64,000 bases of DNA, taken from an uncultured Rickettsiales bacterium (GTDB taxonomy: Bacteria > Myxococcota_A > UBA796 > UBA9615). Location of the stretch: NCBI GenBank assembly GCA_964416435.1, contig CAYQEG010000010.1, forward strand, positions 3,488-67,487. Reading direction: 5' to 3'. This document shows positions 22,414 through 56,678 of the stretch, piece after piece; the first letter of the stretch is position 1; each line of letters opens with the position of its first letter. A model generated the notes under the pieces. It was not told the DNA's origin, did no database searches, and saw only the letters and a program-made list of their open reading frames with translations. The translations under genes were made by a program, and so were the position numbers.

Positions 22414-22417
22414 CCCG

Positions 22418-23446
22418 ATGAGCCACCGAATCCTCGCCCTGGTCGCGTTCCTGCTGCTGCCCCTGACCGGCTGCGTCACCCCGACCGGCAGCTTCGCCGA
22501 CGATGACGACGCAGCCGATGACGACGACGCCACCGACGACGACGACGCCACCGACGACGACGACATCGCAGCCGATGACGACGACGCGACCGACGACGAC
22601 GACGACGCGACCGACGACGACGACGACGCGACCGACGACGACGACGCGACGCCGTCGGGCTGCTGGGAGGCCGAGACGCTGCTGGACGTGGCGTCGGCGC
22701 CCGGCCCCGGCGCCGGCTACCCCGACCCGGAGCTGTCGGGCGAGTGCGACGGCGACCTCTTCGTGGTGGAGGGCAACGGCATCCCCCACTACACGTTCGT
22801 CGCGCTGACCCCCAACGAGCTCGTCGAGGCGGACCACAGCTGGGAGATCCCCCGGGATCCGGAGGTCGCGGACAGCCCGTCGGACATCCCGCTGCTCGGC
22901 CAGATCGCGTTCACGGTCGGCGGGACGTCCATCTTCGGCCCCAACGAGGCCGAGTTCCCCGACCCCTACGGCGACCCCGTCTACAACGGCATCACCGACG
23001 GCTGCACCGGCCACACTGCGTTCGAGTATCACAACCACGCGCTGCAGCAGAAGTGCCTGACGGTCGCCGGCCTGGTGTCCGAACCGTGGACCCTGCCGGA
23101 CGTCGACCAGGACGAGCCGTCCCCGGTCATCGGCTGGGCCCTGGACGGGTTCCCGATCTACGGCCCCTACGGCTGCCTGGACGCCGGCTGCTCCGAGGTC
23201 GTCGAGTACACCTCGGGCTGGGTCCAGATCGCCGACCCGAGCACGTACGCGTGGGACGCCCACGAGTACCAGCCGTCGAGCGACGCCTCGGTGCTGGACG
23301 CCTGCAACGGCCACGTCGGCCCGGACGGCGACTACCACTATCACGCCACCGCCACCTTCCCCTACGTGCTCGGCTGCTACGCCGGCACCCCGGTCGCGGG
23401 CGGCGGCCCGGGCGGCGGCGGCGGGGGGGGAGGACCCGGTCGGTGA
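22418..23446 (+). CDS. YHYH-domain lipoprotein, paralog 2, with ~60-aa poly-Asp low-complexity linker after the lipobox
   Basis: Lipobox LPLTGCV; DDDDAADDDDATDDDD... repeats; ~70% identity to paralog 1 over the globular part; same YHYH motif. Confidence 0.65.
   Translation: MSHRILALVAFLLLPLTGCVTPTGSFADDDDAADDDDATDDDDATDDDDIAADDDDATDDDDDATDDDDDATDDDDATPSGCWEAETLLDVASAPGPGAGYPDPELSGECDGDLFVVEGNGIPHYTFVALTPNELVEADHSWEIPRDPEVADSPSDIPLLGQIAFTVGGTSIFGPNEAEFPDPYGDPVYNGITDGCTGHTAFEYHNHALQQKCLTVAGLVSEPWTLPDVDQDEPSPVIGWALDGFPIYGPYGCLDAGCSEVVEYTSGWVQIADPSTYAWDAHEYQPSSDASVLDACNGHVGPDGDYHYHATATFPYVLGCYAGTPVAGGGPGGGGGGGGPGR
22500..22650 (+). repeat. Tandem GAC/GAT-rich 12-15 nt repeats encoding the poly-Asp linker
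   Basis: gacgacgacgcsaccgacgac units repeated ~9 times. Confidence 0.8.
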
Positions 23447-23463
23447 GCGCTGTGTCCTCGCGC

Positions 23464-24309
23464 ATGTCCGGCAAGACACCGTCGGGTCGGCCTCACGTGC
23501 CCCATGTGCTCGACAACGCGGTGGGTGCCGCACTCGCGCTCGCCTCGAGCCTCTTGCTGGGCTGTCCCGGCGTCGAGGACGACACCGCCGCTCCGGCGTC
23601 CATCGACAGTGACGCCGCCCTGACGTTGAGCTCGGCCAGCTGGGGGCTGGCGTGGGATCTGGGCCGAGTCGAGGCAGCGGGCGACGGGTGGGTCGGCAAG
23701 ACGGACACGGGCTACCGCTTCGAGCTGGAGTCCGGGTTCCTGGTCGACTACGCGGTGCAGCTGGTGGCCTGCGACAACGCGGTGATGGCGAGCCGCGGCG
23801 GTGACCGGTGGCTGGGGCTGTTGGGGATCGGCGTGGCGCACGCCCACCACGGCGAGGTGCAGGACACATCGCTGATCGAGCCGGTGGAGGTCGAGGTCGT
23901 GGGGGCCCCCGACCGGGCGCTCGCGTGGTCGCGGTTCACTCCGGGGGAGTACTGCGGCCTGCACTGGCTGGTCGCGCGGGGCGACCCCGAGACCCGGACG
24001 GACGACGGCGCGAGCGCGTGGGGCACGAGCCTGAAGCTGACGGGCCGCTGGTGGGGCGTCGACGGGGTCGCGGGTGACATCGCCCTGAGCACGTCGCTCA
24101 ACCGGCCGATGCTCCGCGGCTTCGACGACTGCGCCCTGCGCGGTAACGGCGAGCACGCCACGGTCACCCTGACCCGGGACCTGGGCGGCCTCTTCGACGG
24201 GGTCGACTTCGAGCAGGACGGCCCGTCCGCCATCGAGTGGGCGGTGCTGGGCAACCTGGTGGACCAGGGGAGCTGCGACGTCGCCCTCGGCTCTCCGTCG
24301 AGGGGCTGA
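23464..24309 (+). CDS. Hypothetical lipoprotein
   Basis: Lipobox ASSLLLGCPG; in-frame ATG 18 nt after upstream stop; the track ORF from 22744 is over-extended. Confidence 0.45.
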   Translation: MSGKTPSGRPHVPHVLDNAVGAALALASSLLLGCPGVEDDTAAPASIDSDAALTLSSASWGLAWDLGRVEAAGDGWVGKTDTGYRFELESGFLVDYAVQLVACDNAVMASRGGDRWLGLLGIGVAHAHHGEVQDTSLIEPVEVEVVGAPDRALAWSRFTPGEYCGLHWLVARGDPETRTDDGASAWGTSLKLTGRWWGVDGVAGDIALSTSLNRPMLRGFDDCALRGNGEHATVTLTRDLGGLFDGVDFEQDGPSAIEWAVLGNLVDQGSCDVALGSPSRG

Positions 24310-24312
24310 CGC

Positions 24313-25827
24313 CTACCAGGGGCTGAGCAGGATGTAGGCCTTGCCGGGGCCCGCGTCGCCTGGGGCGCCGACCAGGAGGTCGCCGAGGCCGTCGCCGTCG
24401 AGGTCGCCCAGGCCGACCACGTCGCTGCCGAACTCGTCGTCCGCCACCGCGCCGCGGACGAGGCCCCCGCTGAACGCGACCGGGAACGCTCCGCCGGCCG
24501 CCACGATGGCGCCGGACGTGATGTAGACGGCGCCTGCGTCTTCCCCGGCCGCGTCGTTGCGGGGAGCGCCGATGCCGATGTCGGGCACGCCGTCGCCGTC
24601 CACGTCGCCGAGGGCCGTGACCGAGAAGCCGGCACGATCGCCCTCGACTTCGCCGACCAGGGCCGTGGCGGCGGAGACCAGGTAGGCCTGGCCGAACGTC
24701 ACCGTGCCGCCGCGCACGACGTAGACCTTGCCGGCGTTGCTGCCGCCGTCGTCGTTGTTGCGAGCCGACAGCACGAAGTCGGAGATCGAGTCGCCGTCGA
24801 TGTCGCCGATCTCGGTGAGGTCGGTCGCCAGGCGGTCGTCGCCCGACTCGCCCAGGAACCGCGCGTCCGCCCCGGGCAGGGCGATCGTGCCGCCCTCGGA
24901 CTCGATCACCGTCGCGGCGAGGAACAGCGACACCTTGCCCGCGTTGGGGCCGCCCCCCTCGGAGTTGCCCTGCGTGCCGATCAGCAGCTCCCGCAGCCCG
25001 TCGCCGTCGAGGTCGCCGATGCCCCCCGACTGGCAGCCGGACGCCTGTCCCGGTCCCTGCCCCGGGAAGTCCGCCCAGGCGGCGAACGCCGAGGTCGCTT
25101 CGCTCGCCATGAGCGAAGCGCCGCTGACCAGGTAGCTGCGGCCGGCGACGTTGCCGGCCGTCGAGTTGACCGTGTTGGAGACGATCACCTCGCTCGAGCC
25201 GTCGCCGTCCATGTCGCCGACGAAGCGGACGCACTCGGCCACCTGGTCCGTGACCCGATGGGGGGCGTCGGTGGTCGCGATGTCGCCGCCGGCGGCGATC
25301 TGGTCCCCCAGGAAGATCCAGGTGTCGGTGACGCCGTCGGCCCCGACCGCGAGGTCATCGACGCCGTCGCCGTCCAGGTCTCCGGCGTCGAGGGACTCCC
25401 CGAGGTTCCCGCCCGCCAGCGGTCCGATGATGGTGGCGTCGGCGTCCGCGACGTCGATCTCGGCGCCGTCATCGGCGGCCTGCAGGGTGGAGCCGAAGAA
25501 GACATAGACGCGACCGGACGCGTCCTCCTCCGGATCCTCCGGCGCGCCGAGGGCGACATCCGGCACGCCGTCACCGTCGAAGTCGCCCACCGCCATGGCG
25601 CCGCCGAGCCGCTCGACCGCCCCGACGAATCGGATCCGCGCCTCCTCCAGGGTCGGCCACTCGGCCGCCGGGGTGGTGTCGTCGTCATCGACCGCGGCCG
25701 AGTCGTCGTCGTCGTCGACCGCGGCCGAGTCGTCGTCGTCGTCTGCCACGGGGGGCGCGGAGTCGTCGTCGTCGGTGGGGCAGGCGGCCAGGAGGGCCAC
25801 GGCGAGCAGCAGGGGCATGAAGCGCAT
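24313..25827 (-). CDS. FG-GAP repeat lipoprotein with poly-Asp linker
   Basis: MRFMPLLLAVALLAACPTDDDDSAPPVADDDDD; repeated GDxDGDGxxD FG-GAP motifs; 504 aa; the track ORF (to 27189) is over-extended. Confidence 0.7.
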   Translation of the reverse strand: MRFMPLLLAVALLAACPTDDDDSAPPVADDDDDSAAVDDDDDSAAVDDDDTTPAAEWPTLEEARIRFVGAVERLGGAMAVGDFDGDGVPDVALGAPEDPEEDASGRVYVFFGSTLQAADDGAEIDVADADATIIGPLAGGNLGESLDAGDLDGDGVDDLAVGADGVTDTWIFLGDQIAAGGDIATTDAPHRVTDQVAECVRFVGDMDGDGSSEVIVSNTVNSTAGNVAGRSYLVSGASLMASEATSAFAAWADFPGQGPGQASGCQSGGIGDLDGDGLRELLIGTQGNSEGGGPNAGKVSLFLAATVIESEGGTIALPGADARFLGESGDDRLATDLTEIGDIDGDSISDFVLSARNNDDGGSNAGKVYVVRGGTVTFGQAYLVSAATALVGEVEGDRAGFSVTALGDVDGDGVPDIGIGAPRNDAAGEDAGAVYITSGAIVAAGGAFPVAFSGGLVRGAVADDEFGSDVVGLGDLDGDGLGDLLVGAPGDAGPGKAYILLSPW

Positions 25828-25902
25828 CGACAATGATGGTGGTACAAACCCAGCCGCCTGCAAAGGGGCGGCACCGACCCGGACGGCGCGGAGGGAGCGA
25901 GG

Positions 25903-26799
25903 ATGGGCGAGGTCGCTGCGCTGGCCGCCGCCCTCGCCTGGGCCTTCGCCAGCGTGCTGTGGGCGCGCCTCGGCCGCGAGACCGACGAGGTCACCCTCAA
26001 CTTCCTCAAGTGCACCCTGGCCGCGGCCGCGCTCTCCCTCACGCTCCTGATCCTCGACGGCGTCGGCTGGCCCGTCGGCGTCAGCCGCTCCGACCTCCTG
26101 TGGCTCGCGGCGTCCGGGGTCGCGGGGCTGACGCTGGGCGACTCCGCCTACTTCGCGGCCCTGACGCGCATCGGGCCGCGCCGCGCCCTGCTCGTCTGGG
26201 CCCTCGCGCCGGGGCTGTCGGCGCTGCTCGCCTGGCCGGTGCTCGGCGAGCCGATCCACGCCCGCATGGTGCTCGGCATGGTGCTCACCCTGGGCGGGGT
26301 CGTCTGGGTGATCGTCGAACGAACCCCCGACGACGACGGCAAGGCCTCCTCGAGCCTGAGCCGGAGGGAGCTGATGGGGGTGGGGTTCGCCGTGATCGCG
26401 CTGCTCGGCCAGGCGTCCAGCAACGTGCTGCAGAAGTTCGCGGGGCAGGACGCCGGCGCGCTGGGCTTGTCGGTGGTGCGGCTCTCCGTCGGCGCCCTCG
26501 GGCTGGGCATCTGGCTCGGCGCGATGGGTCGCCTCGCCGCCGCCGTCACGCCGATGAAGGAGCCGGCGAAGGCCGGGCGGATCGTGCTCGCGACGGCGAC
26601 CGGGACCTACATCGGGATCTGGCTGTCGGCCTACGGGCTGCTCCACGCCGAGGTCGGCGTGGCGTCGACCCTCAACGCCACCAGCCCCATCTTCGTGCTC
26701 CCCATCGCCGCCACGATGGCCGGTGATCGGATCTCCCGTCGGGCCATCGCCGGGGCCGTCATCGCCGTAGCCGGGGTGGCGATCTTCTTCGTGGGCTAA
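25903..26799 (+). CDS. EamA/DMT-family transporter
   Basis: 10-TM protein with two EamA-like halves. Confidence 0.6.
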   Translation: MGEVAALAAALAWAFASVLWARLGRETDEVTLNFLKCTLAAAALSLTLLILDGVGWPVGVSRSDLLWLAASGVAGLTLGDSAYFAALTRIGPRRALLVWALAPGLSALLAWPVLGEPIHARMVLGMVLTLGGVVWVIVERTPDDDGKASSSLSRRELMGVGFAVIALLGQASSNVLQKFAGQDAGALGLSVVRLSVGALGLGIWLGAMGRLAAAVTPMKEPAKAGRIVLATATGTYIGIWLSAYGLLHAEVGVASTLNATSPIFVLPIAATMAGDRISRRAIAGAVIAVAGVAIFFVG

Positions 26800-26809
26800 C
26801 CTCAAGGGA

Positions 26810-28192
26810 GTGGAAGGTTCCCTCGCGTTCATCGGCATGCTGGTGCTGCTGATGGCCTGCTTCATGACGGCGATCGTGCTGACGCTGATGTCCGCCCGAC
26901 GGCAGGTGGCCGCCAATCGCAGGCGCTGGATGGCCGCCGGCAAGCGCATGTCGTTGACGTTCAACCCCGGCACCGCCGGCCGGCTCGGCGAGCTGACCGG
27001 CAACTGGTGCGGTCGGGACGTCACGATCCGCCACGTGCCCGACGGCAACCCCAGCCCGGGGACCGAGTTCACCGTCGGGCTCAAGGGGCTCGCGTCCCGG
27101 ATCTCCCTCAAGACCGAGAGCCTCGCTACCGGGCTGGTGAAGACCGTCGGCGTGACCGACCCGGAGGTGGGAGACCCCGAGTTCGACAAGCGCTTCTACC
27201 TGCAGGGCAGCCAGGAGGCCCTGTTGACGGCGCTGGGGGCGGACGCGCGGGCCAAGCTCAACCGACCGGGCCTTCCTCCCGTGATCGAAGACGGCTGGAT
27301 GACGCTGCGGGTCGCCGACCTGGTGACCCACCCCGACCAGCTGCAGAAGTTCCTGCGTCGCGCTACGGCCGTGGCCGACTCCCTGGACGAGCTGCCCCCC
27401 GACGAGGCGCTGTTCCGCAACGCGACGGGCGACCCCGTCTGGGAGGTGCGTCGTCGGAGCGTCTCCGAGCTGCAGCATCGCCACCCGGGCAGCCCGCTGA
27501 CGGCCCAGCTCGGCGACGCGCTGGCCGACGATCGGCACCCCCGAGCCCGCGTCCTGGGGGCGACCCTCCTGCGGGACGGGGAGCGAGCCCGAGAGGTGCT
27601 GCGCTCGGTCGCCTTCGACGCCAACGCGCCCGGGGAGGCGCGGCTGGACGGGCTGCTCCTGCTGGAGGATCTCGGCCCCGAGGAAGACGACGCAGACGCG
27701 CTCTGGGTGGTCGCTCAGAAGGGACGGCTGGACGCTCTGCGGGCGTGTGCAGTGCGCACGATCGCCCAGCTCGGGCGGCCCCTCGACGTGCCGCGCCTCA
27801 TCCGCGCCAGCTCGATGGAGACCCCGATCGTGCGCGTCGCGGCCTGTCAGGCGGTCACCGCGATCGGCGGGCCCGACGCCCGGGAGCTGCTCGTGGAGGG
27901 GGTCACCGACCCGGACCCCGACGTCCGGCTGGCCGCGGTCCAGGGGCTGGAGCAGATCGGAGTCCTGGAGGACGTCGAGCTCCTGGTCGGGCCCGGCAGC
28001 AAGCGGGGCGACCTGGCGGTGGCCGCCAACGCGGCCATGGTGGCGATCCGCAAGCGGGCCGGCGTCGACCGGGCCGAGCACGGCCGGCTCGCGGTGTCCG
28101 ACGCCGAGCCGGACGCGGAGGGGCGGCTCAGCCCCGAAGCGGGCGAGCCGGGCGCGCTGAGCGCGCCGGGCGCGGCGAAGACGAAGGCCTGA
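26810..28192 (+). CDS. Membrane-anchored HEAT/PBS-lyase-repeat protein
   Basis: N-terminal TM; repeats of the form DPDPDVRLAAVQGLEQIG. Confidence 0.5.
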   Translation: MEGSLAFIGMLVLLMACFMTAIVLTLMSARRQVAANRRRWMAAGKRMSLTFNPGTAGRLGELTGNWCGRDVTIRHVPDGNPSPGTEFTVGLKGLASRISLKTESLATGLVKTVGVTDPEVGDPEFDKRFYLQGSQEALLTALGADARAKLNRPGLPPVIEDGWMTLRVADLVTHPDQLQKFLRRATAVADSLDELPPDEALFRNATGDPVWEVRRRSVSELQHRHPGSPLTAQLGDALADDRHPRARVLGATLLRDGERAREVLRSVAFDANAPGEARLDGLLLLEDLGPEEDDADALWVVAQKGRLDALRACAVRTIAQLGRPLDVPRLIRASSMETPIVRVAACQAVTAIGGPDARELLVEGVTDPDPDVRLAAVQGLEQIGVLEDVELLVGPGSKRGDLAVAANAAMVAIRKRAGVDRAEHGRLAVSDAEPDAEGRLSPEAGEPGALSAPGAAKTKA

Positions 28193-28207
28193 AGAGAGCC
28201 CCTGGGA

Positions 28208-29059
28208 TCAGGGGTCGAAGCGTCCGCGCTCCCGGGCGAGCAGCACGAACGGCTCGCCGAGGGCGGCGTCCTCCCGGGGCAGGAACACGACGGCGTCCTT
28301 GGTCAGCCGGATCTGCCCGGCGTCACAGGTCGCGATCACCTCGCCCTTGTGCACCTCGGTGCCGTTGGCCAGCGGGCGCGCGAACTGGAGGCCGGTCGCG
28401 GGCACGTGCAGCGCCTCGGTGATCTCGATCACGTGCACGACGGCAGGCTCCGCCGAGCCGGTGAGGAACCGCACCGCGGTGGAGCGCGCCGTGTCCAGCG
28501 CCCGCGCCGTGCCGACCTGGCCGACCTCCGCGGTGATTCCGATGCCGCCGCTCCGGTCGATGAGCGACGCCAACGTCGTCTCCTGAGCCGCTTCGCTGCG
28601 GCCGACGATCGCCAGGTTCAGCCCGATCTGGCCCACCGCCTTGAGGTGGTGGGGCGTGTCGCGCACGACCGCCAGGGGAGGCGTCGGGACCTTGGTCTGG
28701 CGCAGGTCGAGCAGCGAGTCGACGGGCTTGAGCCACTTCCGGAGCAGCGCTGCCCTCTCCCGCTCGTACTCCGGCCCATCGTCGTCACCGTCGCCCGCCT
28801 CGGGTCCGAAGTACCGACTCAGGTCGGCGCCCTCCTCGCTGCCGCGGGTGCCCGCCTGCAGCGCTCTGGGGTTTCCGATGACCAGCCACACCTCATCGCG
28901 GGATGCCTCCCACAGCGGGTGGTCCGGATCCGTCAGCTCGCGCACGACGGTCGCGCCGTCTCCCTCATCGCCGTGCATGGAGCCGACGATGGCAAGTGAG
29001 CGACGTTTTCCGGACAGCCCTCGGCGCAGCCAGAGCCCCTCCTCGATCTCGGTGACCAC
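28208..29059 (-). CDS. Succinylglutamate desuccinylase/aspartoacylase (AstE/AspA) family zinc deacylase
   Basis: GSMHGDEGDG metal-binding motif; ~280 aa. Confidence 0.5.
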   Translation of the reverse strand: MVTEIEEGLWLRRGLSGKRRSLAIVGSMHGDEGDGATVVRELTDPDHPLWEASRDEVWLVIGNPRALQAGTRGSEEGADLSRYFGPEAGDGDDDGPEYERERAALLRKWLKPVDSLLDLRQTKVPTPPLAVVRDTPHHLKAVGQIGLNLAIVGRSEAAQETTLASLIDRSGGIGITAEVGQVGTARALDTARSTAVRFLTGSAEPAVVHVIEITEALHVPATGLQFARPLANGTEVHKGEVIATCDAGQIRLTKDAVVFLPREDAALGEPFVLLARERGRFDP

Positions 29060-29081
29060 GATGCAATTGTAGAGTGGTCCG

Positions 29082-29948: not shown

Positions 29949-30010
29949 TCTCCGATAGTGACTCTGCCTTGAGTCACTAATCATGGTGGCGGCCTGAGAT
30001 CGCTGGTACG

Positions 30011-32293
30011 GTGCCAACCATGGCCCGGCTCCTGCTGCTTCTGTCCCTCCTGGCGGCCCTCGCGCTGAGCGGCTGCGACCAGGAATGCATCGCCAACTGT
30101 CCCGAAGTCGACGACGACGACTCCGGCGACGATGACGACGTCGCCGACGACGATGACGCGGCGGACGACGACGACACCACCCCACCCATCGACGAGCCGG
30201 ACCCGGAGATCGTCACGGTCCGCGACTGCACCCCGGTGCTCGCGTACCGCCCCGACTGGACCCCCGGCTCGGTCGACGTGGCCGGCGAGTGGAACGCCTG
30301 GGTCGCGGAGCCGATGACCGGCCCCGACGAGGACGGCACCTGGACGATCGAGCTGCCGGCGTTGGACCCGGGCGAGTACGCCTACAAGCACCTGCACAAC
30401 GGCGAGTGGGAGGGGGATCCGCCCCCCTGGGCGTACGCCAAGTGGCTCGACGGCAACGAGAACCGCAACCTGCGGGTGGGCGACTGCAGCCGGCCGCTGC
30501 TGCAGACGGTCGACGCGTCGGCGACGGCCGCCGGCGCCCTGCGGGCGACCGTGCAGATCGCCCTCGCGGAGGACGAGGCGTCCGTCGTCGCGGACGACAT
30601 CCTGGTTCTCGTCGGGGGCGTCGCGGCGCCCGTCGACTTCGACCCCGCGACCGGCCTGCTGAACATCGAGGTCGACGGCCTGGATCCCGGCAAGCACTCG
30701 GTCCTCGTCTACGCGAGCGACGAGGAGGGACGCACGGCCGAGAACGAGCCCCTCTGGATCCCGCTGTGGGTCGAGGACGAAGCGTTCACCTGGGAGGACG
30801 CGCTCATCTACTTCGCGTTCGTCGACCGCTTCCGCAACGGCGACTTCGGCGAAGATCCGTTGTTCGGCCCCGTGCCGGACACGCCGACGGCGGCCAACTA
30901 CCAGGGAGGCGACTTCCTGGGCGTGCTCCAGGCGCTGGAGGAGGGCTGGTTCGAGCAGCTCGGCGTCAACGTGATCTGGCTGACGCCGGTCTACGAGAAC
31001 CCGGACGACCCCTACATCGCGGTCGACGGCATCCACAACTTCAGCGGCTTCCACGGGTACTGGCCCATCGACCCGCTCGCCACCGAGTCCCGCTCCGGGG
31101 ACGTCTGGGTGGACAGCGAGGAGCGGCTCCACGAGCTGATCGAGGCGGCCCACGCGCGCGGCGTGCGCGTCATGTTCGACCTGGTGCTCAACCACGTGCA
31201 CGAGGACCACGTCTACGTGAACGAACACCCCGAGTGGTTCGGCGGCGGCTGCGTCTGCGGCTCCGACGGCTGCGGCTGGGAGGAGCGCGCGCTCGACTGC
31301 TGGTTCACCAGCTACCTGCCCGACCTCGACTACCGCAACCACTGGGTCACCGAGCGCGTGCTCGACGACACCATCGAGCTGATCCGCCGGTACGACGTCG
31401 ACGCGGTGCGGGTGGACGCCGCCAAGCACATGGACCATGTGGTGATGCGGTCGCTGTCGCGGCGGCTGCGGGACGAGTTCGAGGTGGGCGGCGGCGCCGA
31501 GTTCTACCTGGTGGGCGAGACGTTCACCGGCGGGGACGGCCACGGCACGATCATGGACTACGTCAACCCGTGGGAGCTCGACGGCCAGTTCGACTTCCCC
31601 CTGTACTGGACGATCCGCAGCACGTTCGCCCACGACGCTTCGTTCTTCGAGTTGGACGGCGCGGTCTCCACCGGCGAGGCCCAGTACGGCGACGGGCTGA
31701 TGTCACCCTTCGCGGGCAACCACGACATCGCCCGTCTCGCCACCGAGATCGCCGGCAACGACGGCGGCGCGTGGGGCTTCACCGAGGACTGGATGGCGGG
31801 CGGCGGCGACGAGGTCACCCAGTGGGACCTGATCACGCGGCAGTCGATGGCGCTGGCGTTCACGCTGACCCAGCCGGGCGCGCCGCTGCTGTACTACGGC
31901 GACGAGATCGGGCTGGCCGGCAGCGGCGACCCGGACAACCGTCGGTTCATGACCTTCGAGCCGTACCTGTCCGCCAACCAGAGCGAGCTGCTGGGCCGGG
32001 TGCGGAACATCGGGCGAGCGCGCGCCGAGAGCCGGGCCATCCGGCGGGGCGAGCGGCGCACCCTGTGGGTCGACGACGAGCTGTACGTGTACGCGCTGGA
32101 GGCCGGTGACGACGTCGCGATCGTGGCCCTGCACAAGGGCTGGTCGGAGCGCACCGAGACGATCCCGCTGGGCCGGAGCGACCTCGGCGAGTCGCTGGAC
32201 GACGCCGCCTTCGGCCGCAGCTTCTCGGTGGACGGCAGCGACCTGAGCCTGACCCTCGGCTCCTGGGACTACGCGATCCTGATCGCCGACTGA
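30011..32293 (+). CDS. GH13 alpha-amylase-family lipoprotein with poly-Asp linker and starch-binding-like N-domain
   Basis: Lipobox LALSGC; DDDDSGDDDDVADDDDAADDDD; GH13 regions GYWP, GVRVMFDLVLNHV, DAVRVDAAKHM, YLVGE, FAGNHD. Confidence 0.8.
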   Translation: MPTMARLLLLLSLLAALALSGCDQECIANCPEVDDDDSGDDDDVADDDDAADDDDTTPPIDEPDPEIVTVRDCTPVLAYRPDWTPGSVDVAGEWNAWVAEPMTGPDEDGTWTIELPALDPGEYAYKHLHNGEWEGDPPPWAYAKWLDGNENRNLRVGDCSRPLLQTVDASATAAGALRATVQIALAEDEASVVADDILVLVGGVAAPVDFDPATGLLNIEVDGLDPGKHSVLVYASDEEGRTAENEPLWIPLWVEDEAFTWEDALIYFAFVDRFRNGDFGEDPLFGPVPDTPTAANYQGGDFLGVLQALEEGWFEQLGVNVIWLTPVYENPDDPYIAVDGIHNFSGFHGYWPIDPLATESRSGDVWVDSEERLHELIEAAHARGVRVMFDLVLNHVHEDHVYVNEHPEWFGGGCVCGSDGCGWEERALDCWFTSYLPDLDYRNHWVTERVLDDTIELIRRYDVDAVRVDAAKHMDHVVMRSLSRRLRDEFEVGGGAEFYLVGETFTGGDGHGTIMDYVNPWELDGQFDFPLYWTIRSTFAHDASFFELDGAVSTGEAQYGDGLMSPFAGNHDIARLATEIAGNDGGAWGFTEDWMAGGGDEVTQWDLITRQSMALAFTLTQPGAPLLYYGDEIGLAGSGDPDNRRFMTFEPYLSANQSELLGRVRNIGRARAESRAIRRGERRTLWVDDELYVYALEAGDDVAIVALHKGWSERTETIPLGRSDLGESLDDAAFGRSFSVDGSDLSLTLGSWDYAILIAD

Positions 32294-32382
32294 GGGTGCG
32301 CGCCCCACGGACGCACCGTGCGCGCACCGGCGCGGAGGCCGGGCCGATCGCGCAAGTAGCTGAAATCTCTAGCTTCCCAACC

Positions 32383-32398
32383 TGGCACGGCGGTTGCT
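32383..32398 (+). promoter_or_regulatory. Candidate sigma-54 (-24/-12) promoter TGGCACG-N4-TTGCT upstream of the lipoprotein gene at 32411
   Basis: Exact match to the TGGCACGnnnnTTGCW consensus; the expected TSS lies at the ATG, implying a leaderless or near-leaderless transcript. Confidence 0.35.
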
Positions 32399-32410
32399 CT
32401 TACGAGGTGC

Positions 32411-33976: not shown

Positions 33977-34009
33977 GCCGAGCCGATCCGACCGGCGTAG
34001 GGTGTCGGC

Positions 34010-44761: not shown

Positions 44762-45088
44762 ATGGCCGGCAACGTCCAGGAGTTCAGCGACACCAACTTC
44801 GACGCCGAGGTGCTCGGCAGCGACCAGCCCGTGCTGGTCGACTTCACCGCCGTCTGGTGCGGCCCCTGCAAGAAGCTCTTCCCGCTCGTCGAGGCGGTCG
44901 CGGACGAGTACGCCGGGCGTGTCAAGGTCGGCAAGCTCGACATCGACCACAACCCCAACACGGCCATCAAGTACCACGTCCGGTCCGTGCCGACGCTCGT
45001 GGTGTTCAAGGACGGCAAGCCCGTCAACAAGGTCGTCGGGCTCACGAACAAGCGGAAGATCGCCGCGATGTTCGACAGCGCCCTGTAG
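44762..45088 (+). CDS. trxA: Thioredoxin
   Basis: WCGPCK active site; 108 aa. Confidence 0.9.
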   Translation: MAGNVQEFSDTNFDAEVLGSDQPVLVDFTAVWCGPCKKLFPLVEAVADEYAGRVKVGKLDIDHNPNTAIKYHVRSVPTLVVFKDGKPVNKVVGLTNKRKIAAMFDSAL

Positions 45089-46421
45089 CGCCGACGAGCG
45101 CCAACGCCAGGAGCCAGATCGCCATCCCTGCGGGGGGCTCGCCGTGCTCGCACGTGCAGCCTTCGGCGGGTGGCTCCGTCGCCGGCTCGACCCGCGCCAG
45201 CCCGCACTGGATCTCCGCCGGCGCCGGCCCCACCGACGCCCCCACGATGCCGATCCGGCCTTGGGGGTCGACCGCGCCCGTCAGCCGAAGCTCGACCACG
45301 CCGCCGCCGCTGCCTGACGCCACCTCCCCGCCGGACCCGACGACGTCGATCGCGACGAGGCGGATCTCCGCCACCGCGCCCTCCGGCTCGACCGAGCAGG
45401 CCAGCGCGAGCGGGCGCTCCTCTCCGTCGTTGGGCAGCTCCGCGAACAGGGCCGTGAACGGGGCGTCGACGTGCAGGAACGCCACCTCACCGGCGTCCAC
45501 GGACAGCTCCTCGACGTTCACCTGGGCCGCCTCCAGCACGCACCCGTGGGTCGCCGCGTCGTAGTGGGCGCCGTCGTCCCGGGCGCACGCGAACAGGTTC
45601 CAGAGCGCGTAGGTGCCGAACGCGGCTTCGAACGACTCGCCCAGGTCCGCCCGCGTCGCCGAGTCGAGCGCCGCGGCCCAGTCCGGGTCGTCGGCGAGCG
45701 CGTCCCAGACCGCCCGGACGGTCCCCTCCCCGTCCCCGCGGTCGAACAGGTGCTTGAACAGCAGGAACCCGGCGTACTCGTACCGATCCCCCTCCAGGTG
45801 GATCGCGGCGTCCATGCCGCGCAACCGCTGGTTCCACAGCACGCCGAGGGCGAACTCCAGCGCGCCGCCGGTGTACAGGCGGTACTGCTCGAAGGTGGCG
45901 GTCGCCTCGTAGATCCAGGACTCCGCGGCGTTGGTGTAGGCGTACTGCACGCAGTGATGCAGCTCGTGGGCCGCGACCGAGCGCGCCGTCTCGTCCCCCA
46001 GGGAGGTGTTCCCGGGATCGAGCTCGACGTAGCAGGAGGTCCCGTCGGCCACCGGCACGTGCCAGGCGAACCCGAAGGCGGTGATCTCGCGGAGGTAGAC
46101 GTCGATCTCCGGGGTGCCGCCGCCCCCCTCGTCCGGGAGCACCGTGCGCCAGCCCATCGCCTCGTAGTCGGCGGCGGCGTCGGTCAGCGCTTCGAGCACC
46201 AGGTCGACCCCGTCGGGGATGCCGTCCCCGTCGTCGTCCCCCATGTCGGCGGGGCGGTCGACGCCCTCCTCCGTCCAGTGCACGACGAACTGGCCGTCGT
46301 CGCTGAGCACCGTCTGCTCCGGTCCCGACAGCGAGGGACGCCCCCCCCCGCGAGCCTCGTCCGCGGGGCGGGTGCACGGGGCCAGGGCCAGAGCCGTGGC
46401 CGTCAACAAGGGCAGCAGCAT
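45042..46421 (-). CDS. Secreted HExxH zinc metallopeptidase-like lipoprotein with MYXO-CTERM sorting signal
   Basis: Lipobox LALAPC; AHELHHCVQY; C-terminus GCTCEHGEPPAGMAIWLLALALVGATGRCRTSRR (Cys motif + TM + Arg cluster). Confidence 0.6.
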   Translation of the reverse strand: MLLPLLTATALALAPCTRPADEARGGGRPSLSGPEQTVLSDDGQFVVHWTEEGVDRPADMGDDDGDGIPDGVDLVLEALTDAAADYEAMGWRTVLPDEGGGGTPEIDVYLREITAFGFAWHVPVADGTSCYVELDPGNTSLGDETARSVAAHELHHCVQYAYTNAAESWIYEATATFEQYRLYTGGALEFALGVLWNQRLRGMDAAIHLEGDRYEYAGFLLFKHLFDRGDGEGTVRAVWDALADDPDWAAALDSATRADLGESFEAAFGTYALWNLFACARDDGAHYDAATHGCVLEAAQVNVEELSVDAGEVAFLHVDAPFTALFAELPNDGEERPLALACSVEPEGAVAEIRLVAIDVVGSGGEVASGSGGGVVELRLTGAVDPQGRIGIVGASVGPAPAEIQCGLARVEPATEPPAEGCTCEHGEPPAGMAIWLLALALVGATGRCRTSRRSSACS

Positions 46422-46447: not shown

Positions 46448-47467
46448 GTGCTGCCGGTGCTCCTCGCTGCCCTCCTGACGCCCCTGGACGCCGCCCACGC
46501 GGTGGACCGGGACCGGCCGTTCGAGACGGTCGAGCATCTCGCCGGGGAGCGGCCCATCAACGGCGCCCCGCTGCGGTCACGGCACATCGAACACCCCGAC
46601 CACGCGGTCGCCGGGGCCTGGGTGGTCGAGCAGTTCGAGGCGGTCGACGGGCTGGACGTGCAGACCGAGGGGTTCAGCGCGCTGGGCCAGGACGACCTGT
46701 TCAACGTCATCGCCGACCTCCGGTCCCCCCTGGACGCCCCCGAGGGGCGGCTGGTCCTGGGCGCCCACTGGGACTCCACCGCCTCGTTCGAGGACGACTG
46801 GGATCCGCTGACCACCGAGGCGCCCGGCGCCGACGACGACGCGTCGGGCGTCGCGGTGCTCCTGGAGGTCGCGCGGGTGCTCGCGACCCACGAGGGCGGC
46901 TTCGCGTGGGACGTGCGGTTCATCGCGTTCGACGCCGAGGAGGAGGGGCTGATCGGGTCGTACCACCATGTCGAGCAGCTGGACGTGCCGGTGACGACCG
47001 CGGTCATCCTCGACCCCGTCGGCTACAACCCCGGCGACTCCGGGCTGCTCTGGTTCGCCTTCCACGCCTCGTGGCCCGAGGCGGGCGACGCGTTCACCTC
47101 GACCGCCGCCGACCTGGGGACGTGGCTGGACGTCAGCGGCGTCGACCAGGACCTGATCGGCGGGGACGCCCGGTCGGACCACTACCCCTTCTGGCTGGAG
47201 GACATCCCAGCGATCCACGTCGGCACGTTCCCCCAGCCGCCGGCCTATCACACGAGCGACGACCGGCCCGACGTGGTGGATCCGCAGTTCCTCGCCGAAG
47301 TGACCGCCCTGGTGGCCGCCCACGCGGTCTCCCTGGCCGGCCCGTTGGAGCCCGAGGAGCCCGACGGGGGCGCCTGCGACGGCTGCTCGGCGTCCCTCGC
47401 GGGGGGCGCACCGGGAGCAACCTTCCTGCTCCTGCTTGCCGCGCGGGCCCGACGTCAGCGAACATGA
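46448..47467 (+). CDS. M28-family aminopeptidase with MYXO-CTERM sorting signal
   Basis: GADDDASGVAVLLE and FDAEEEGLIGS M28 metal-binding motifs; C-terminus GGACDGCSASLAGGAPGATFLLLLAARARRQRT. Confidence 0.7.
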   Translation: MLPVLLAALLTPLDAAHAVDRDRPFETVEHLAGERPINGAPLRSRHIEHPDHAVAGAWVVEQFEAVDGLDVQTEGFSALGQDDLFNVIADLRSPLDAPEGRLVLGAHWDSTASFEDDWDPLTTEAPGADDDASGVAVLLEVARVLATHEGGFAWDVRFIAFDAEEEGLIGSYHHVEQLDVPVTTAVILDPVGYNPGDSGLLWFAFHASWPEAGDAFTSTAADLGTWLDVSGVDQDLIGGDARSDHYPFWLEDIPAIHVGTFPQPPAYHTSDDRPDVVDPQFLAEVTALVAAHAVSLAGPLEPEEPDGGACDGCSASLAGGAPGATFLLLLAARARRQRT

Positions 47468-52016: not shown

Positions 52017-52194
52017 AGCACCGATCATGGAGTCCGACCGAGCCGCGTGAGGCGGAGGCGCGCGAGGTCAAGGAACGACGAGGCCGCGCATCGAGATGCG
52101 CAACGAGGAGTGACGCAGAGATCGGGTGGATCCGTCCACGGAGCGACCGAGCGACTATGTGATTGGTGCTCTAGTCAGGCGGAGATCGAGGCCA

Positions 52195-52797: not shown

Positions 52798-53390
52798 CAG
52801 GGCGTCCCCGCGGTCGCCTCGAGGATCCGGGACCACAGCTCGCCGCGCCCCGTCCGGTCGACGCTGCTGAACAGGAGGCTGGCCTCCCGCTCGACGCCCA
52901 GCCCCTTGCAGATCAGGCTGTGGCGGTGGAGCCGCTTGGACTTGGCGATGCGGTCGACCTTCGTGAGCACCAGCAGCCCCAGCCGCTCGGTTTCCTCGAG
53001 CCAGTCGAGCATGCGGTCGTCCAGGTCCGTCGGGTCCCGGCGCATGTCGACCAGCACGACCACCAGCCTCAGCGACTCCCGGCTCGCCAGGTACTCGCCG
53101 ATCATCTTGTCCCAGGTCCGCTTCACCTTGAGGGGCACCTTGGCGAAGCCGTAGCCCGGCAGGTCGGCGAACCGTAGATCGCGGCCGCTGTGTCGGACGT
53201 CGAAGAAGTTGATCGCCTGGGTGCGCCCCGGGGTCTTGCTCACCCGCGCCGCCCCGTGCCGCCCCACCAGCGTGTTCAGGCAGGAGCTCTTGCCGACGTT
53301 GCTGCGCCCCACGAACGCCACCTCCGGGCGATCGTCGTCGGGCCATTGCTTGCGCGCGAAGGCCGACAGCAGGAAGCGGACGTCGGTCAT
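52797..53390 (-). CDS. engB: Ribosome biogenesis GTP-binding protein EngB/YihA
   Basis: VAFVGRSNVGKSSCLN G1 motif, DLPGYG, LTKVD; ATGA overlap with upstream cytochrome gene. Confidence 0.8.
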   Translation of the reverse strand: MTDVRFLLSAFARKQWPDDDRPEVAFVGRSNVGKSSCLNTLVGRHGAARVSKTPGRTQAINFFDVRHSGRDLRFADLPGYGFAKVPLKVKRTWDKMIGEYLASRESLRLVVVLVDMRRDPTDLDDRMLDWLEETERLGLLVLTKVDRIAKSKRLHRHSLICKGLGVEREASLLFSSVDRTGRGELWSRILEATAGTP

Positions 53391-54613
53391 CGGTTCAGGG
53401 GCGCGAGCACCGGGTCGCCGGGCAGGTGGCACCGCAGGCAGACGGTCCCCTCCCCCTGGCCGAAGCGCCAGGTGCCGACGTCCTCGGCCCAGGCGTCCGG
53501 ATGGGGGCTGACGAGCGCGCCGTGGCACTCCAGGCAGAGCGACTCCCCCTCTCCGCCGTGGCACGCGACGCAGGTCTCGAGCGAGCGCCGCGCCTGGAAG
53601 CTGTGGTGCTCGCCCGTCGGGATGGTGCCGGGCTCGCCCCGCCAGCCGTTGGGGTGGAACGTCAGGTCGCCGGGGTTGTCGAGGTTCTCGGGGCTTGGGA
53701 AGCCCGACGGAGTGACCCCCGCTTCGGCGTGGCAGGACCGGCAGTCCGCCTCGACCTCGTGGCAGGCGAGGCAGTCCAGCGTGCGACGCTGGGCTTCCAG
53801 GCCGTGGGTGTTCTTCCAGTCGGCGGGGTGCAGCCCGATCGGCTCCTGCAGGCCGTCGTGGCAGTCCAGGCAGCTGTCCGCGTCGTGGCACGCGCCGCAG
53901 GACGCCTCGTCGGTCCGCGCGGCGGCCCGGTGGACTTCCAGCCAGCGGCCCTGGTCGTGGTCGTCGGGGCGGAACTGGCCCGACGGACGCAGCCTCCCCC
54001 GGGAGTCCAGCATCGTCAGGAGCCGGCCGCCGTCGCCCTGCAGGTGGCAGGTCGTGCACTCGGACGGGGCGGCCCCTCCGGTGTGACAGTCCAGGCAGGT
54101 CCGCATGGTCGGCAGGTGCTGTCGCGTCGCCAGGTCCGCGCTGTCGACGCCGACGTGGCACTCCAGGCACGGGGTCCCGAGGTCGACGTGGAGCTTGTGA
54201 CTGAACGTGATGCGGGCCGGCGGGATGTCGATCCGTTCGGGCTGGGGAGCGGTCGGCAGCGGCTGCCCCATCGGGTCCACGTCCGCGTGCGTGCCCCCGT
54301 CGATCGCGGTGTGGCACGCCCCGCAGCCCGCCTTGGGGTAGCGCTCGACCGCGTCGGGCGCCTGGGTGAGGTGGCAGATGTTGCACTGGGGGTGACCCGG
54401 CACGAGCGAGTCCCGCGCGTCGGTGCTCGTCGTGGCCGCGACGTGGCAGACCTGGCACTGGAGGCCGAGCTCCAGGTGCTTGCTGTGGCTGAACGTGATC
54501 GGGAGGTGCTGCTCGGGGTAGACCAGCGTGGAGCGCGGATCGCCCACCGGCGACCTGGCCACCGCGGTCGCGGTGAGCAGCAGCAGCGCGGCGACCAGCA
54601 GCGCGCGCTTCAT
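53387..54613 (-). CDS. Periplasmic multiheme c-type cytochrome (13 CXXCH motifs)
   Basis: Signal peptide MKRALLVAALLLLTATAVA; CQVCH, CNICH, CGACH, CLECH, CLDCH, CTTCH, CGACH, CLDCH, CLACH, CRSCH, CVACH, CLECH, CLRCH. Confidence 0.85.
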   Translation of the reverse strand: MKRALLVAALLLLTATAVARSPVGDPRSTLVYPEQHLPITFSHSKHLELGLQCQVCHVAATTSTDARDSLVPGHPQCNICHLTQAPDAVERYPKAGCGACHTAIDGGTHADVDPMGQPLPTAPQPERIDIPPARITFSHKLHVDLGTPCLECHVGVDSADLATRQHLPTMRTCLDCHTGGAAPSECTTCHLQGDGGRLLTMLDSRGRLRPSGQFRPDDHDQGRWLEVHRAAARTDEASCGACHDADSCLDCHDGLQEPIGLHPADWKNTHGLEAQRRTLDCLACHEVEADCRSCHAEAGVTPSGFPSPENLDNPGDLTFHPNGWRGEPGTIPTGEHHSFQARRSLETCVACHGGEGESLCLECHGALVSPHPDAWAEDVGTWRFGQGEGTVCLRCHLPGDPVLAPLNR

Positions 54614-56115
54614 CGCTCACCCCCCAGGCCCACGCCGCCGCCCAGCCCGGGCAGCGTCTCCCGCCCCGACGCCGCGCCGCCGACGAGGCGGGCGGGCTGG
54701 AACGCGTCGACCCGGGCCTCTTCGCGGGCCGCGGGGCCGAGGTGCTTGATGCCCAGGAGCAGGTCGAGCGTCGCCGAGATGCGCCAGTCGTTCTTCAACC
54801 AGGGAGAGAAGATCGTCTCCCCCCGCGCGCCGACCCGGAGCCACGGCAGCGGCCGCACCGCCCCGTCGACCACGAGCCCTCCGTACAGCCCCTGGAGGTT
54901 GGGCTGGATGGTGAAGTCGTAGGACTGCAGGTCTCCGCGGACGCCGAGCTCGATCCGCCCGTCCAGGGGCGTGACGCGGCCCGACAGGCCGACGCCGAAC
55001 TTGCGGCCGCCGGTGCCGTCGACGAGCCGCTGGTCCACTGAGAAGCGGAGGAAGTCGAGGGGACGCACCGTGACTCCGGCGCGCTGGGTGCCCGACAGGC
55101 GGCCGACCTCGTCCCGGGGCACGTCGTCCTTGGTCGCCGGGATGGGCAGGATCTGCAGGCCGCCGCCGACGTGCACCGACAGGACCTGGCCGACGCGCAG
55201 GTCGGCGTCGCCCCGGATCGCGTCGTAGGGGTCGGTGTTGAAGACGGAGAACAGCTCCGTCGAGTCGAACGTCGGCTGCCAGTGCTCGTACTCGACGCCC
55301 GCGCGCAGCCAGCCCGTCGGCTTCACGTCGACGCCGGCGAGCGCCTCGCTGATCCGGCGCTGGAGCAGGTCGACGGCCAGGTTGCCCCGCACGTTGACGA
55401 CGCCGAGGATCCCCTTGTGCACGTCGATCGTGAGGTTCCGGCGGGCGAGTTGACCGTCCCGGAATCGATCGACGAAGCCGATCCGGACCTGGGTCGTCGG
55501 CAGCCCCGAGGTCGCCAGGGAGACCCCCCACGTCCAGTCCCGGCCCCAGCCGGTCTCGTGGGTCTCCCGCTGTTCCTTCGGCACGACGAAGGCCCGGCTC
55601 CGCAGCGAGATCCCGGCGAAGGTCTCGATCTGCAGGCGATGCAGCGTCATCGACGCCCGCAGCCCGTCGATGCGGGTCAACCCGTGGGTCCCGCCGGTGG
55701 CGAGGATCTGGCGCCCCAGTCGGGCCGACACCCAGCGCCCCTCCGGGGCCACGTCGACGAAGGCGTAGAGCACCTCGCCGGTGAAGCCACCGCGGTAGAG
55801 GTCCGCCCCGCCCCGCACGGACGTCTCGAAGGAGACCCGATGCCGGCTCCGGTCGTCCCGGACGACGAACGAGAAGGCCTGGGTGAGGGGGCTGAAGGGG
55901 ACGACGCGATCGGTGCTGCTGCGCAGCGATCGCCAGCGGTAGACGGTCCGCGAGCGCCCCCAGAGGTAGATCCCCTGGCCGCTCCCCTTGAGGTAGTCGC
56001 CGTCGTCGACCTCGCCCCAGCCGGTCGCCAGCACGCCGCCGGAGCCGGCCTCCGCCGGGGGCGGGGCGATCAGGACCCCGAACACGATCGAGGCCGCCAG
56101 GAGGCGCAGTCGCAT
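54610..56115 (-). CDS. Predicted outer-membrane beta-barrel protein (porin-like), 501 aa
   Basis: Signal peptide MRLRLLAASIVFGVLIAPPPAEA; alternating amphipathic beta-strand pattern rich in G/R/Y/W; coupled (overlapping) to both flanking cytochrome genes; the track ORF (to 56820) is over-extended. Confidence 0.45.
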   Translation of the reverse strand: MRLRLLAASIVFGVLIAPPPAEAGSGGVLATGWGEVDDGDYLKGSGQGIYLWGRSRTVYRWRSLRSSTDRVVPFSPLTQAFSFVVRDDRSRHRVSFETSVRGGADLYRGGFTGEVLYAFVDVAPEGRWVSARLGRQILATGGTHGLTRIDGLRASMTLHRLQIETFAGISLRSRAFVVPKEQRETHETGWGRDWTWGVSLATSGLPTTQVRIGFVDRFRDGQLARRNLTIDVHKGILGVVNVRGNLAVDLLQRRISEALAGVDVKPTGWLRAGVEYEHWQPTFDSTELFSVFNTDPYDAIRGDADLRVGQVLSVHVGGGLQILPIPATKDDVPRDEVGRLSGTQRAGVTVRPLDFLRFSVDQRLVDGTGGRKFGVGLSGRVTPLDGRIELGVRGDLQSYDFTIQPNLQGLYGGLVVDGAVRPLPWLRVGARGETIFSPWLKNDWRISATLDLLLGIKHLGPAAREEARVDAFQPARLVGGAASGRETLPGLGGGVGLGGER

Positions 56116-56678
56116 CAGTTGTCCAGCGCCCCCTGGAGGATCCAGGACCAGATGAGCGACTTCTGCTCGTCCGACAGCGGCACCGCGCCGGCGAAGTTCT
56201 CCGGCGGCATCGGCCCCTGGAAGTAGCCCCAGTCGGGGTTCATGTTGTGACAGCCCAGCACCTTGCGGAACAGGTACGACTGCTGGGGATCTCCCGCGGT
56301 CACCCGTGGCATGCCGTCGCCCTCGCCGTACAGGAGCGAGTTGGGCACATCCACCAACTCGGCCCAGGACTGGCCGGGGGACAGCGTCAACTGACCCTGC
56401 TTCTGGAAGACGTGGCACTTCTGGCAGTGGTCGAAGAACATCGGCTCGATGTCGTCCCCGAGGGAGACCTCCGGCCGCTCCTCGAGGAAGTCCGTGTCGC
56501 AGATCAGGACCGCGGAGTCGTCGTCGTCCGGCGCCGAGTCGTCGTCGTCGTCGTCGGTCGTGTCGTCGTCGTCGACCACCACCGCCAGGGCGTAGGGCTC
56601 GTTGTCCGTGACCGTCGGACAGCCCGCGGCGAGGGCCACGAGCAGGACGATCAGCAAGAGCGCTCGGGCCGTGGTCAT
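56115..56678 (-). CDS. Mono-heme cytochrome c lipoprotein with poly-Asp linker
   Basis: Lipobox LAAGCP; DDDDTTDDDDDDSAPDDDDS; single CQKCH heme motif. Confidence 0.6.
   Translation of the reverse strand: MTTARALLLIVLLVALAAGCPTVTDNEPYALAVVVDDDDTTDDDDDDSAPDDDDSAVLICDTDFLEERPEVSLGDDIEPMFFDHCQKCHVFQKQGQLTLSPGQSWAELVDVPNSLLYGEGDGMPRVTAGDPQQSYLFRKVLGCHNMNPDWGYFQGPMPPENFAGAVPLSDEQKSLIWSWILQGALDN

Follow-up and report, generated by a model that had tools for sequence, protein, structure and literature searches.

Poly-aspartate tracts beside the anchor cysteines of exported proteins: a probable disordered tether in marine Myxococcota-like bacteria

Why should unrelated lipoproteins of one bacterium carry the same ladder of aspartate blocks close to the Cys that is predicted to be lipidated? 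The question is raised by a stretch of 64,000 nucleotides (nt) from an uncultured bacterium filed under Rickettsiales (contig CAYQEG010000010.1 of assembly GCA_964416435.1). This stretch, here called the window, has a G+C content of 70-75% and about 56 genes according to a gene map based on codon bias. In four of these genes a lipobox is followed by runs of four or more Asp residues (D-blocks) that are separated by short spacers. We propose, with a probability of roughly 0.6, that such a tract is a lineage-specific, disordered, polyanionic tether between the lipid-modified Cys and the folded domain of the exported protein. The four proteins and their tracts are the following.

22418..23446, + strand: g24, YHYH-domain lipoprotein (paralog 2) of 342 amino acids (aa); lipobox LTGC with Cys19; Pfam YHYH, 3e-25
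22499..22645, + strand: candidate poly-D tether of g24; eight blocks of D4-5 with spacers AA, AT or IAA, aa 28-76
24313..25833, - strand: g26, FG-GAP repeat lipoprotein of 506 aa; lipobox LAAC with Cys18; Pfam FG-GAP, 8e-41
25678..25773, - strand: candidate poly-D tether of g26; after CPT, blocks D4, D5, D5 and D4 with spacers SAPPVA, SAAV and SAAV, aa 21-52
30020..32293, + strand: g31, GH13 alpha-amylase-family lipoprotein of 757 aa; lipobox LSGC with Cys19; Pfam Alpha-amylase, 6e-29
30110..30175, + strand: candidate poly-D tether of g31; four D4 blocks with spacers SG, VA and AA, aa 31-52
56115..56678, - strand: g52, small CxxCH lipoprotein of 187 aa; motif CQKCH invariant; lipobox AAGC with Cys20
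56517..56573, - strand: candidate poly-D tether of g52; D4-TT-D6-SAP-D4, aa 36-54

A first-pass annotation of this DNA had pointed to these four unrelated lipoproteins with a lipobox and poly-D, and their sequences and coordinates are indeed as it described them. In a six-frame scan of the entire 64 kb, 19 runs of at least four Asp were found, none of them outside the four genes (eight in g24, four each in g26 and g31, three in g52); they lie 2-57 residues past the lipobox Cys, and the first block starts 2-15 residues from this Cys. Each of the four lipoboxes comes after a basic n-region and a hydrophobic h-region. It should be mentioned that the lipoprotein calls in the window are based on sequence pattern only. 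When the residues of every protein were shuffled with the Asp content kept, 2,000 shuffles gave 1.5 +/- 1.2 runs, with a maximum of 7, versus the 19 observed, and the DNA pattern for D4-x2-D4 matched eight times in the window versus not at all in 100 shuffles. Of the nine lipobox proteins of the window, four have the tract, versus 0 of the 47 other proteins (Fisher p = 3.4e-4), and the six clear type-I signal-peptide proteins (g4, g7, g22, g30, g50, g51) do not have it. The shuffles and the Fisher test rule out chance or a compositional artefact.

The family labels given in the first-pass annotation were confirmed by Pfam for YHYH, FG-GAP and GH13. The fourth label, cytochrome c, is putative: g52 gave no match in Pfam (E<=10), NCBIfam or PDB sequence searches, and it is the CQKCH motif that points to this function. 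Since CQKCH is invariant across the five homologs of g52, a cytochrome c-like protein is plausible, but unproven.

Is the tract part of a folded structure? In an AlphaFold2 model of g24, calculated from an alignment of 47 sequences, residues 1-80 have a predicted local distance difference test score (pLDDT) of 47-56 and are coil with no secondary structure; from the block that starts at residue 81 the pLDDT is at least 95, and the domain begins with Cys82. The model was run on g24, and the tracts of g26, g31 and g52 are predicted to be disordered from their composition only. A second line of evidence comes from the gene directly upstream of g24.

21592..22413, + strand: g23, YHYH-domain lipoprotein (paralog 1); lipobox LTAC; 11-aa linker, no poly-D

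g23 and g24 are 77% identical and their 245-aa domains can be aligned free of gaps. The linker has 11 residues in g23 versus about 62 in g24 (residues 20-81), including the 49-residue tract of D-blocks. Therefore, the tract is an insertion between anchor and domain that is not needed by the fold.

To describe the tract, 41 lipobox-associated examples were collected from the window, from homologs of its proteins and from a genome scan that is presented below. D4 is the commonest block (125 of 194), the spacers have two to three residues in 135 of 149 cases with a composition of A > T > S > G > V, and the number of blocks per tract is 1-10, with a median of 4. From the Cys it is 2-42 residues to the first block (median 7), and the median end of the tract is +34, with +33 to +57 in the window. 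The unit of the tract is regular; its register and its copy number are not. In position +2, Pro is found in 19 of the 41 cases, Asp in three and Lys in none, and D-blocks never begin there. Within the window, only g31 has Asp at +2 (CDQEC); the other three proteins have P, P and V. This is in line with the claim of the first-pass annotation that the tracts would be extended acidic tethers and not examples of the +2-Asp rule of Escherichia coli.

The +2 Asp of g31 is part of a Cys-rich stub, CDQECIANCP, that starts with the lipobox Cys (residues 19-29, window 30074-30106). A stub CD[QT]EC[IV]xNCP directly past the lipobox is conserved in the GH13 orthologs P0121-P0139, with the +2 Asp in the close ones. 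Stub and +2 Asp recall PulA, a GH13 pullulanase lipoprotein that is exported via a type II secretion system (T2SS) and also has Asp at +2 (cited in PMC3222651). This is a lead separate from the tract.

The tract is not confined to one genome. It recurs in homologs of three of the four families, in high-GC marine Myxococcota-like genomes, and the idea that it is lineage-specific, which had already been put forward from the window, is thereby borne out. Most of the named homologs go under Polyangiaceae, Nannocystaceae, Enhygromyxa, Minicystis, Myxococcota or Deltaproteobacteria, a few under Alphaproteobacteria, Proteobacteria or Pseudomonadota. Among the best 120 matches of the YHYH protein, most are lipoproteins in which this site is likewise taken by a linker of low complexity (median about 40 aa, range 13-137). 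The nearest relatives have a short linker or D-blocks, from one block (P0001) to eight (P0006); remoter ones have Asp/Thr, Asp/Gly or Glu/Thr repeats, and the Polyangiaceae-type proteins have Gly/Ser-rich linkers. The GH13 orthologs with a detectable lipobox (n=95) show the same picture: 41 have 2-6 D-blocks, eight have one and 46 have none, and the anchor Cys and the first Cys of the domain are a median of 49 aa apart with at least two blocks versus 57 aa with none, where a Gly/Tyr/Asp filler is found instead. All GH13 linkers are acidic (D+E 27-40%, K+R 3-4%). In the linkers of YHYH and GH13 orthologs, composition is free and length is roughly retained. The g52 family is small, with only five homologs among 5.8 billion proteins, and at 33-99% identity all five have kept lipobox and D-blocks; in one of them the tract has expanded to about five DDDDDTTPA units.

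At its other end, g24 has a poly-Gly tail (window 23390-23446), GGGPGGGGGGGGPGR. In place of this tail, many YHYH homologs have a Gly- or Asp-rich linker and behind it a Cys-rich C-terminal module with about 60 aa.

How is the tract encoded, and does its length vary? Tandem Repeats Finder (TRF) detected arrays at all four tracts: in g24 at 22497-22650, with a period of 18/21 nt and about eight copies; in g26 with a period of 27 nt and 2.4 copies of 97% identity, which indicates a recent duplication of the unit; in g31 with a period of 18 nt and 3.8 copies; and in g52 with a period of 24 nt (21/24). The tandem repeats that had been postulated are thus real. That they are GAC-rich is plain codon bias: 93% of the Asp codons are GAC in the tracts versus 92% elsewhere, which rules out a special codon usage.

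From the repeats it had further been concluded that the length of the tract may vary. Between species this holds, with 1-10 blocks, but not within a population. The DNA of the window is found in four metagenome assemblies at an identity of at least 99.9%, and the tracts, covered by two to four independent assemblies each, have neither length differences nor mismatches. The tracts of the 99%-identical cluster representatives P0121 and P0241 are also identical to those of the window, whereas P0122 (81% identity to g31) and P0242 (about 72-75% to g52) differ from it in block sizes and spacers. Hypervariable length at the population level was not seen in the four assemblies or in the 99%-identical homologs, although consensus assemblies could hide minor length variants. 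Since the length is identical within the population and in 99%-identical homologs, the tract is not of the contingency type; the turnover of the repeats is slow and on an evolutionary scale.

Low complexity of another type is seen in g55, a protein of 1463 aa (window 59113-63504, + strand). Its long tandem repeats of 21/42/63 nt at 60465-61053 encode Ala/Glu/Lys-rich units, with no poly-D.

Where else does the tract occur? We searched a collection in which each species has a single genome for three D4 blocks separated by 2-4 residues; the matches listed are a sample. On the loci from metagenome-assembled genomes (MAGs), automated lipoprotein and gene calls were too noisy for reliable proportions, with open reading frames (ORFs) in the wrong frame, and were used only after manual reading; the lipoboxes of L044, L072 and L104 were missed by automated calling, as were the genes g23, g25, g45 and g52 of the window. 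Among the matches listed, 89 of 124 ORFs have homopolymeric or D/E/F/L acidic tails. These generic poly-D tails are not periodic, come from many phyla and have no lipobox, and were set apart from the periodic class. The matches listed also hold 35 tracts of the periodic, small-spacer type, nearly all from marine MAGs with 62-77% G+C that are titled Deltaproteobacteria, Myxococcota, 'uncultured proteobacterium' or 'uncultured Rickettsiales'. Of the periodic matches listed, 16-17 lie within 60 residues past a lipobox, with three more lipobox cases missed by the regular expression, five are cut by contig ends and a few are internal. In at least seven cases the periodic tract stops 1-14 residues short of a C-terminal Cys motif that is followed by a transmembrane (TM) helix and an RRRR tail.

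This C-terminal arrangement is that of MYXO-CTERM, a tag which is described as universal in and specific to Myxococcota, whose Cys is predicted to be lipidated and whose proteins are displayed on the surface via the T2SS (PMC11980579). With the MYXO-CTERM profile TIGR03901 (cutoff 20 bits), the proteins of L015 (30.5 bits) and L062 (24.0 bits) scored above the cutoff; L037 (16.6) and g44 of the window (16.8) stay below it, and L094 comes close to the cutoff of TIGR03382. The window has two genes of this kind.

45042..46310, - strand: g43, MXAN_6640-family HExxH metalloprotease; GCTC motif, TM helix and R-rich tail; NF045524 at 1.3e-34, with a score of 120 bits under the curated cutoff of 140
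46448..47467, + strand: g44, M28-like aminopeptidase; tail with GGACDGCS, a hydrophobic stretch and RARRQRT; TIGR03901 at 16.8 bits; no poly-D

The tail of g44, read as a predicted anchor and with its sub-threshold profile match, shows that the organism uses a second type of Cys anchor. It should be added that g43 and g44 are adjacent peptidases and that both have GC.C, TM helix and Arg-rich tail in the manner of MYXO-CTERM. From these tails and the labels of the named homologs, we take the source of the window to be an uncultured marine bacterium that belongs to Myxococcota or is closely related to this phylum.

Poly-D in non-lipoproteins had been named beforehand as a sign of a general compositional bias. 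It is absent from all 47 other proteins of the window, but in related MAGs it is present in front of MYXO-CTERM anchors and, in rare cases, between domains. Lipobox proteins are thus not the only carriers of the tract, which is found largely near the predicted lipid-modified Cys of exported proteins. An internal tract was seen in L036 (1872-3618) and in the homologous ORF of L068, about 129 residues into a lipobox protein and between segments that look folded; therefore, the module can also serve as an interdomain linker. Genes beside the scan matches that did not themselves trigger the scan have blocks of D3-4 after their lipoboxes, with single blocks in L048, L077, L088 and L108. A further version of the tether with D3, outside the scan pattern, is encoded in L067 (4695-6367, + strand) by three tandem genes for small paralogous lipoproteins of 169-209 aa, in which CPAP[QS]HPDVYEGG.Y.G is followed by (DDD[VA]G)n.

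The loci L006, L013, L015, L016, L023, L037, L051, L062, L067, L072, L079, L087, L088, L093 and L104 come from MAGs that bear the title 'uncultured Rickettsiales bacterium' and have proteins with lipobox and poly-D; the G+C content of the scanned ORFs is 62-77%, and some (L015, L062) have MYXO-CTERM tails above cutoff. The label 'Rickettsiales' looks wrong, and the MAGs look Myxococcota-like.

How would a tether of this kind work? A string of units, each with Asp4-5 and two to three small residues, fills the whole stretch that separates the anchor Cys from the first structured residue. The repeats of 18-27 nt could grow and shrink over evolutionary time by slippage or unequal exchange, and selection would act on length, disorder and negative charge but not on the exact sequence. 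As a spacer, the tract would keep the exported domain some nanometres off the membrane. Charge repulsion, within the chain as well as against the anionic membrane or lipopolysaccharide (LPS) surface, would keep the chain extended and soluble, and the trafficking machinery (Lol or T2SS) could probably handle the anchor without hindrance from the domain, as for the linkers of E. coli.

Several points weigh against this interpretation. We infer the tether function from anatomy and analogy, and low AlphaFold confidence on a low-complexity segment is weak evidence for disorder. The proportions from the genome scan describe a sample that was selected for at least three D4 blocks and are no census. 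Five of the nine lipoproteins of the window have no tract, and a comparison of residues +2 to +5 and of protein family revealed no feature that separates them from the other four. Moreover, a pure spacer has no obvious need for regular D4 blocks, as Gly/Ser linkers are enough in E. coli and in the Polyangiaceae homologs. Therefore, a spacer does not account for the strong preference for Asp, which could stem from a further role, for instance in recognition or the binding of cations. Extension of the chain by charge, repulsion from the surface, solubility in seawater and binding of Mg2+ or Ca2+ are reasonable candidates for what favours Asp4.

Could the tract instead be a dedicated sorting signal, with acidic blocks near the lipidated Cys that are recognised by an export route to the surface, be it the T2SS or an unknown flippase? 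A specific surface-sorting signal had been suggested in the first-pass annotation, and several observations would fit. The tract lies beside both kinds of predicted lipidated Cys, lipobox and MYXO-CTERM, and surface display of MYXO-CTERM proteins proceeds via the T2SS (PMC11980579). The cargo, with a GH13 polysaccharide hydrolase and an adhesin-like FG-GAP protein, suits the surface, and only a subset of the lipoproteins (4/9) has the tract, as one would expect of a sorting code. Some tracts begin at +3/+4 (CPTDDDD in g26, L051 and P0001), much like SDDDD in the lipoprotein export signal (LES) of Bacteroides fragilis (PMC5080379). However, LES is position-critical from +2 to +6, whereas here the first block is found anywhere from 2 to 42 residues past the Cys, and in GH13 proteins the tract sits behind the conserved Cys-rich stub. 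Close paralogs and orthologs do without it, as does the 77%-identical g23, or have unrelated Gly/Ser or Gly/Tyr filler in its place, and a few tracts are internal (L036/L068). Furthermore, the known signals of Myxococcus xanthus are Lys at +2 and Ala at +7, and an exchange of Ala for Asp at +7 blocked the export of FibA to the extracellular matrix (PMC3222651). Altogether, the data do not support a specific surface-sorting signal, and we consider this explanation unlikely.

Somewhat broader is the idea of an anchor-proximal acidic code in a clade of marine Myxococcota, in which periodic Asp4 blocks within about 1-40 residues of an N- or C-terminal lipid-modified Cys would be read in one shared step of export or retention, such as surface display through the T2SS or docking to LPS by cation bridges. 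If true, two lipid-anchoring pathways would be unified under one surface-sorting determinant, but the idea is rather improbable.

Poly-Asp segments are low-affinity, high-capacity binders of Ca2+ and minerals. The Asp blocks might thus chelate Ca2+ and Mg2+ from seawater and in this way cross-link the protein to LPS or matrix, buffer cations or stiffen the tether. The organisms are indeed marine (the source titles include MAGs from the Tara Red Sea and other marine metagenomes), and binding would give a reason for what a simple need for charge and disorder does not explain, namely that Asp by far exceeds Glu in the blocks and that the D4 unit is so regular. On the other hand, orthologs manage with much less acidic Gly/Ser or Gly/Tyr linkers, no EF-hand, DxDxDG or TSP3 repeat can be recognised and Pfam has no match on the tract. 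We regard cation binding as the principal function as a long shot.

The predicted proteome of the window is markedly acidic, with little Lys (D 8.1%, E 6.3%, K 2.2%, R 6.9%). One may ask whether the tract is a neutral by-product, in which slippage-prone GAC repeats expand wherever low complexity is tolerated in an Asp- and GC-rich genome and the chemistry of Asp is not selected at all. With 8.1% Asp in the proteome and 92% of the Asp codons being GAC, the raw material is there, the tracts are tandem DNA repeats, linker composition drifts freely between lineages and close orthologs differ in block number. But the tracts are found only beside the anchors of exported proteins and neither in the Ala/Glu/Lys repeats of g55 nor in the Gly tail of g24; the same unit architecture is present in unrelated proteins of many genomes; and it is retained over 33-99% identity in the g52 family, with stable length in four assemblies and in 99%-identical homologs. 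As the tracts are anchor-proximal and stably retained, neutral slippage is hardly the whole story, and the odds for it are poor.

Positive charge in the early mature region hampers Sec export, and linkers nearly free of K/R, with a tract that flanks the hydrophobic segment on its exported side in both contexts and Arg/Lys on the cytoplasmic side, might suggest an aid to translocation or topology, a negative segment on the periplasmic side that promotes export assisted by the proton motive force and enforces orientation, a 'negative-outside' analogue to the positive-inside rule; but with the type-I signal-peptide proteins g4, g7, g22, g30, g50 and g51 and many lipoproteins of the same genome lacking the tract, and with four to ten blocks going far beyond any need for charge balance near the cleavage site, this is very improbable.

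What does the disordered tether, the reading that we prefer, add? Disordered linkers behind the anchor have only recently been seen as functional parts of lipoproteins, and the data come almost all from E. coli. The lineage described here has an extreme version that is naturally titrated: 1-10 copies, a paralog without linker and orthologs with Gly/Ser or Gly/Tyr substitutes. These natural variants could be used to separate the contributions of length, charge and disorder. The disordered lipoprotein linker as such is already known; new is that the same module flanks MYXO-CTERM anchors. Its presence beside both the lipobox and the MYXO-CTERM Cys suggests the same physical requirement at the membrane surface for both routes. 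A search of the literature found no paper in the library searched in which a lipobox is combined with poly-Asp or Asp-rich tracts. The motif also offers an easy way to spot exported, lipid-anchored proteins in marine Myxococcota MAGs with poor annotation, and it flags MAGs with doubtful taxonomic labels. If the tract is only a spacer, it is a tidy extension of known biology with no new mechanism. This is probably the case; the phenomenon is nevertheless real, recurrent and easy to exploit experimentally.

Two further features of the window should be mentioned. The genes g50-g52 (53387-56678, - strand) apparently form a three-gene operon, in which g50 and g52 have a CxxCH motif. At 35699-35777 there is a G-rich low-complexity region with a poly-G run of about 56 nt. 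A contig from the Joint Genome Institute (L001) matches window 20020-35720 at 99.95% identity and departs from it exactly at this G-rich region, which suggests an assembly join or a strain-variable boundary.

How does the tract compare with known systems? The LES of Bacteroidota, C-X-K-(D/E)2, or SDDDD at +2 to +6 in B. fragilis, is short and position-critical (PMC5080379). Like the tract, it is an acidic run near the +1 Cys in a subset of lipoproteins that includes glycan-degrading enzymes. The differences are greater: LES has four to five residues and is specific to Bacteroidota, whereas the poly-D tracts have 20-60 residues in variable copy number, begin at a distance of 2-42 residues from the Cys and can be missing from paralogs and orthologs. 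With no fixed position at +2 to +6, no Lys at +2 and a lineage other than Bacteroidota, LES is ruled out as the identity of the tract.

The MYXO-CTERM tag (TIGR03901; myxosortase MrtX, PMC11980579) is typical of the same lineage, and the tract 1-14 residues before the Cys of the tag mirrors the lipobox case. The tag, however, is the anchor or sorting element itself, whereas poly-D is an optional neighbour, and none of the four window proteins with the tract has the tag.

In the surface lipoproteins of the Vlp/Vsa type from mycoplasmas, the lipobox is followed by in-frame tandem repeats that form a charged low-complexity extension with high-frequency variation in size, which provides antigenic or shielding variation within populations. 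Lipobox, tandem-repeat charged extension and a copy number that varies between lineages are shared with the tract; the length of the poly-D tract, in contrast, is identical within the population. Haloarchaeal and other secreted lipoproteins have a spacer rich in Asp, Glu, Gly and Thr between the lipobox Cys and the folded domain. This spacer is likewise acidic and belongs to salt-adapted organisms, but the haloarchaeal linkers belong to another domain of life and another anchoring pathway and, to our knowledge, are not organised as regular D4 blocks.

Closest are the linkers of E. coli lipoproteins such as RcsF, Pal and NlpD described by El Rayes et al. Among the outer-membrane lipoproteins of E. 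coli, about half have a disordered linker of more than 22 aa, and length and disorder of this linker, not its sequence, are needed for efficient sorting by Lol; Gly/Ser can substitute for it (bioRxiv 10.1101/2021.01.05.425367). The poly-D tract differs in being a regular tandem array of D4-5 that is extremely acidic and arises from DNA repeats, and in that the module is also found in front of a C-terminal Cys anchor. Otherwise, both types of linker follow directly on the lipidated Cys and the sorting residues, extend over more than 22 residues, are predicted to be disordered, and are unconserved in sequence while their length is roughly kept. The share of lipoproteins is also similar, about half there and here 4/9 with poly-D, with shorter acidic linkers in several others. 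That orthologs have, in place of D-blocks, Gly/Ser or Gly/Tyr filler of much the same length agrees well with the picture obtained with the E. coli linkers.

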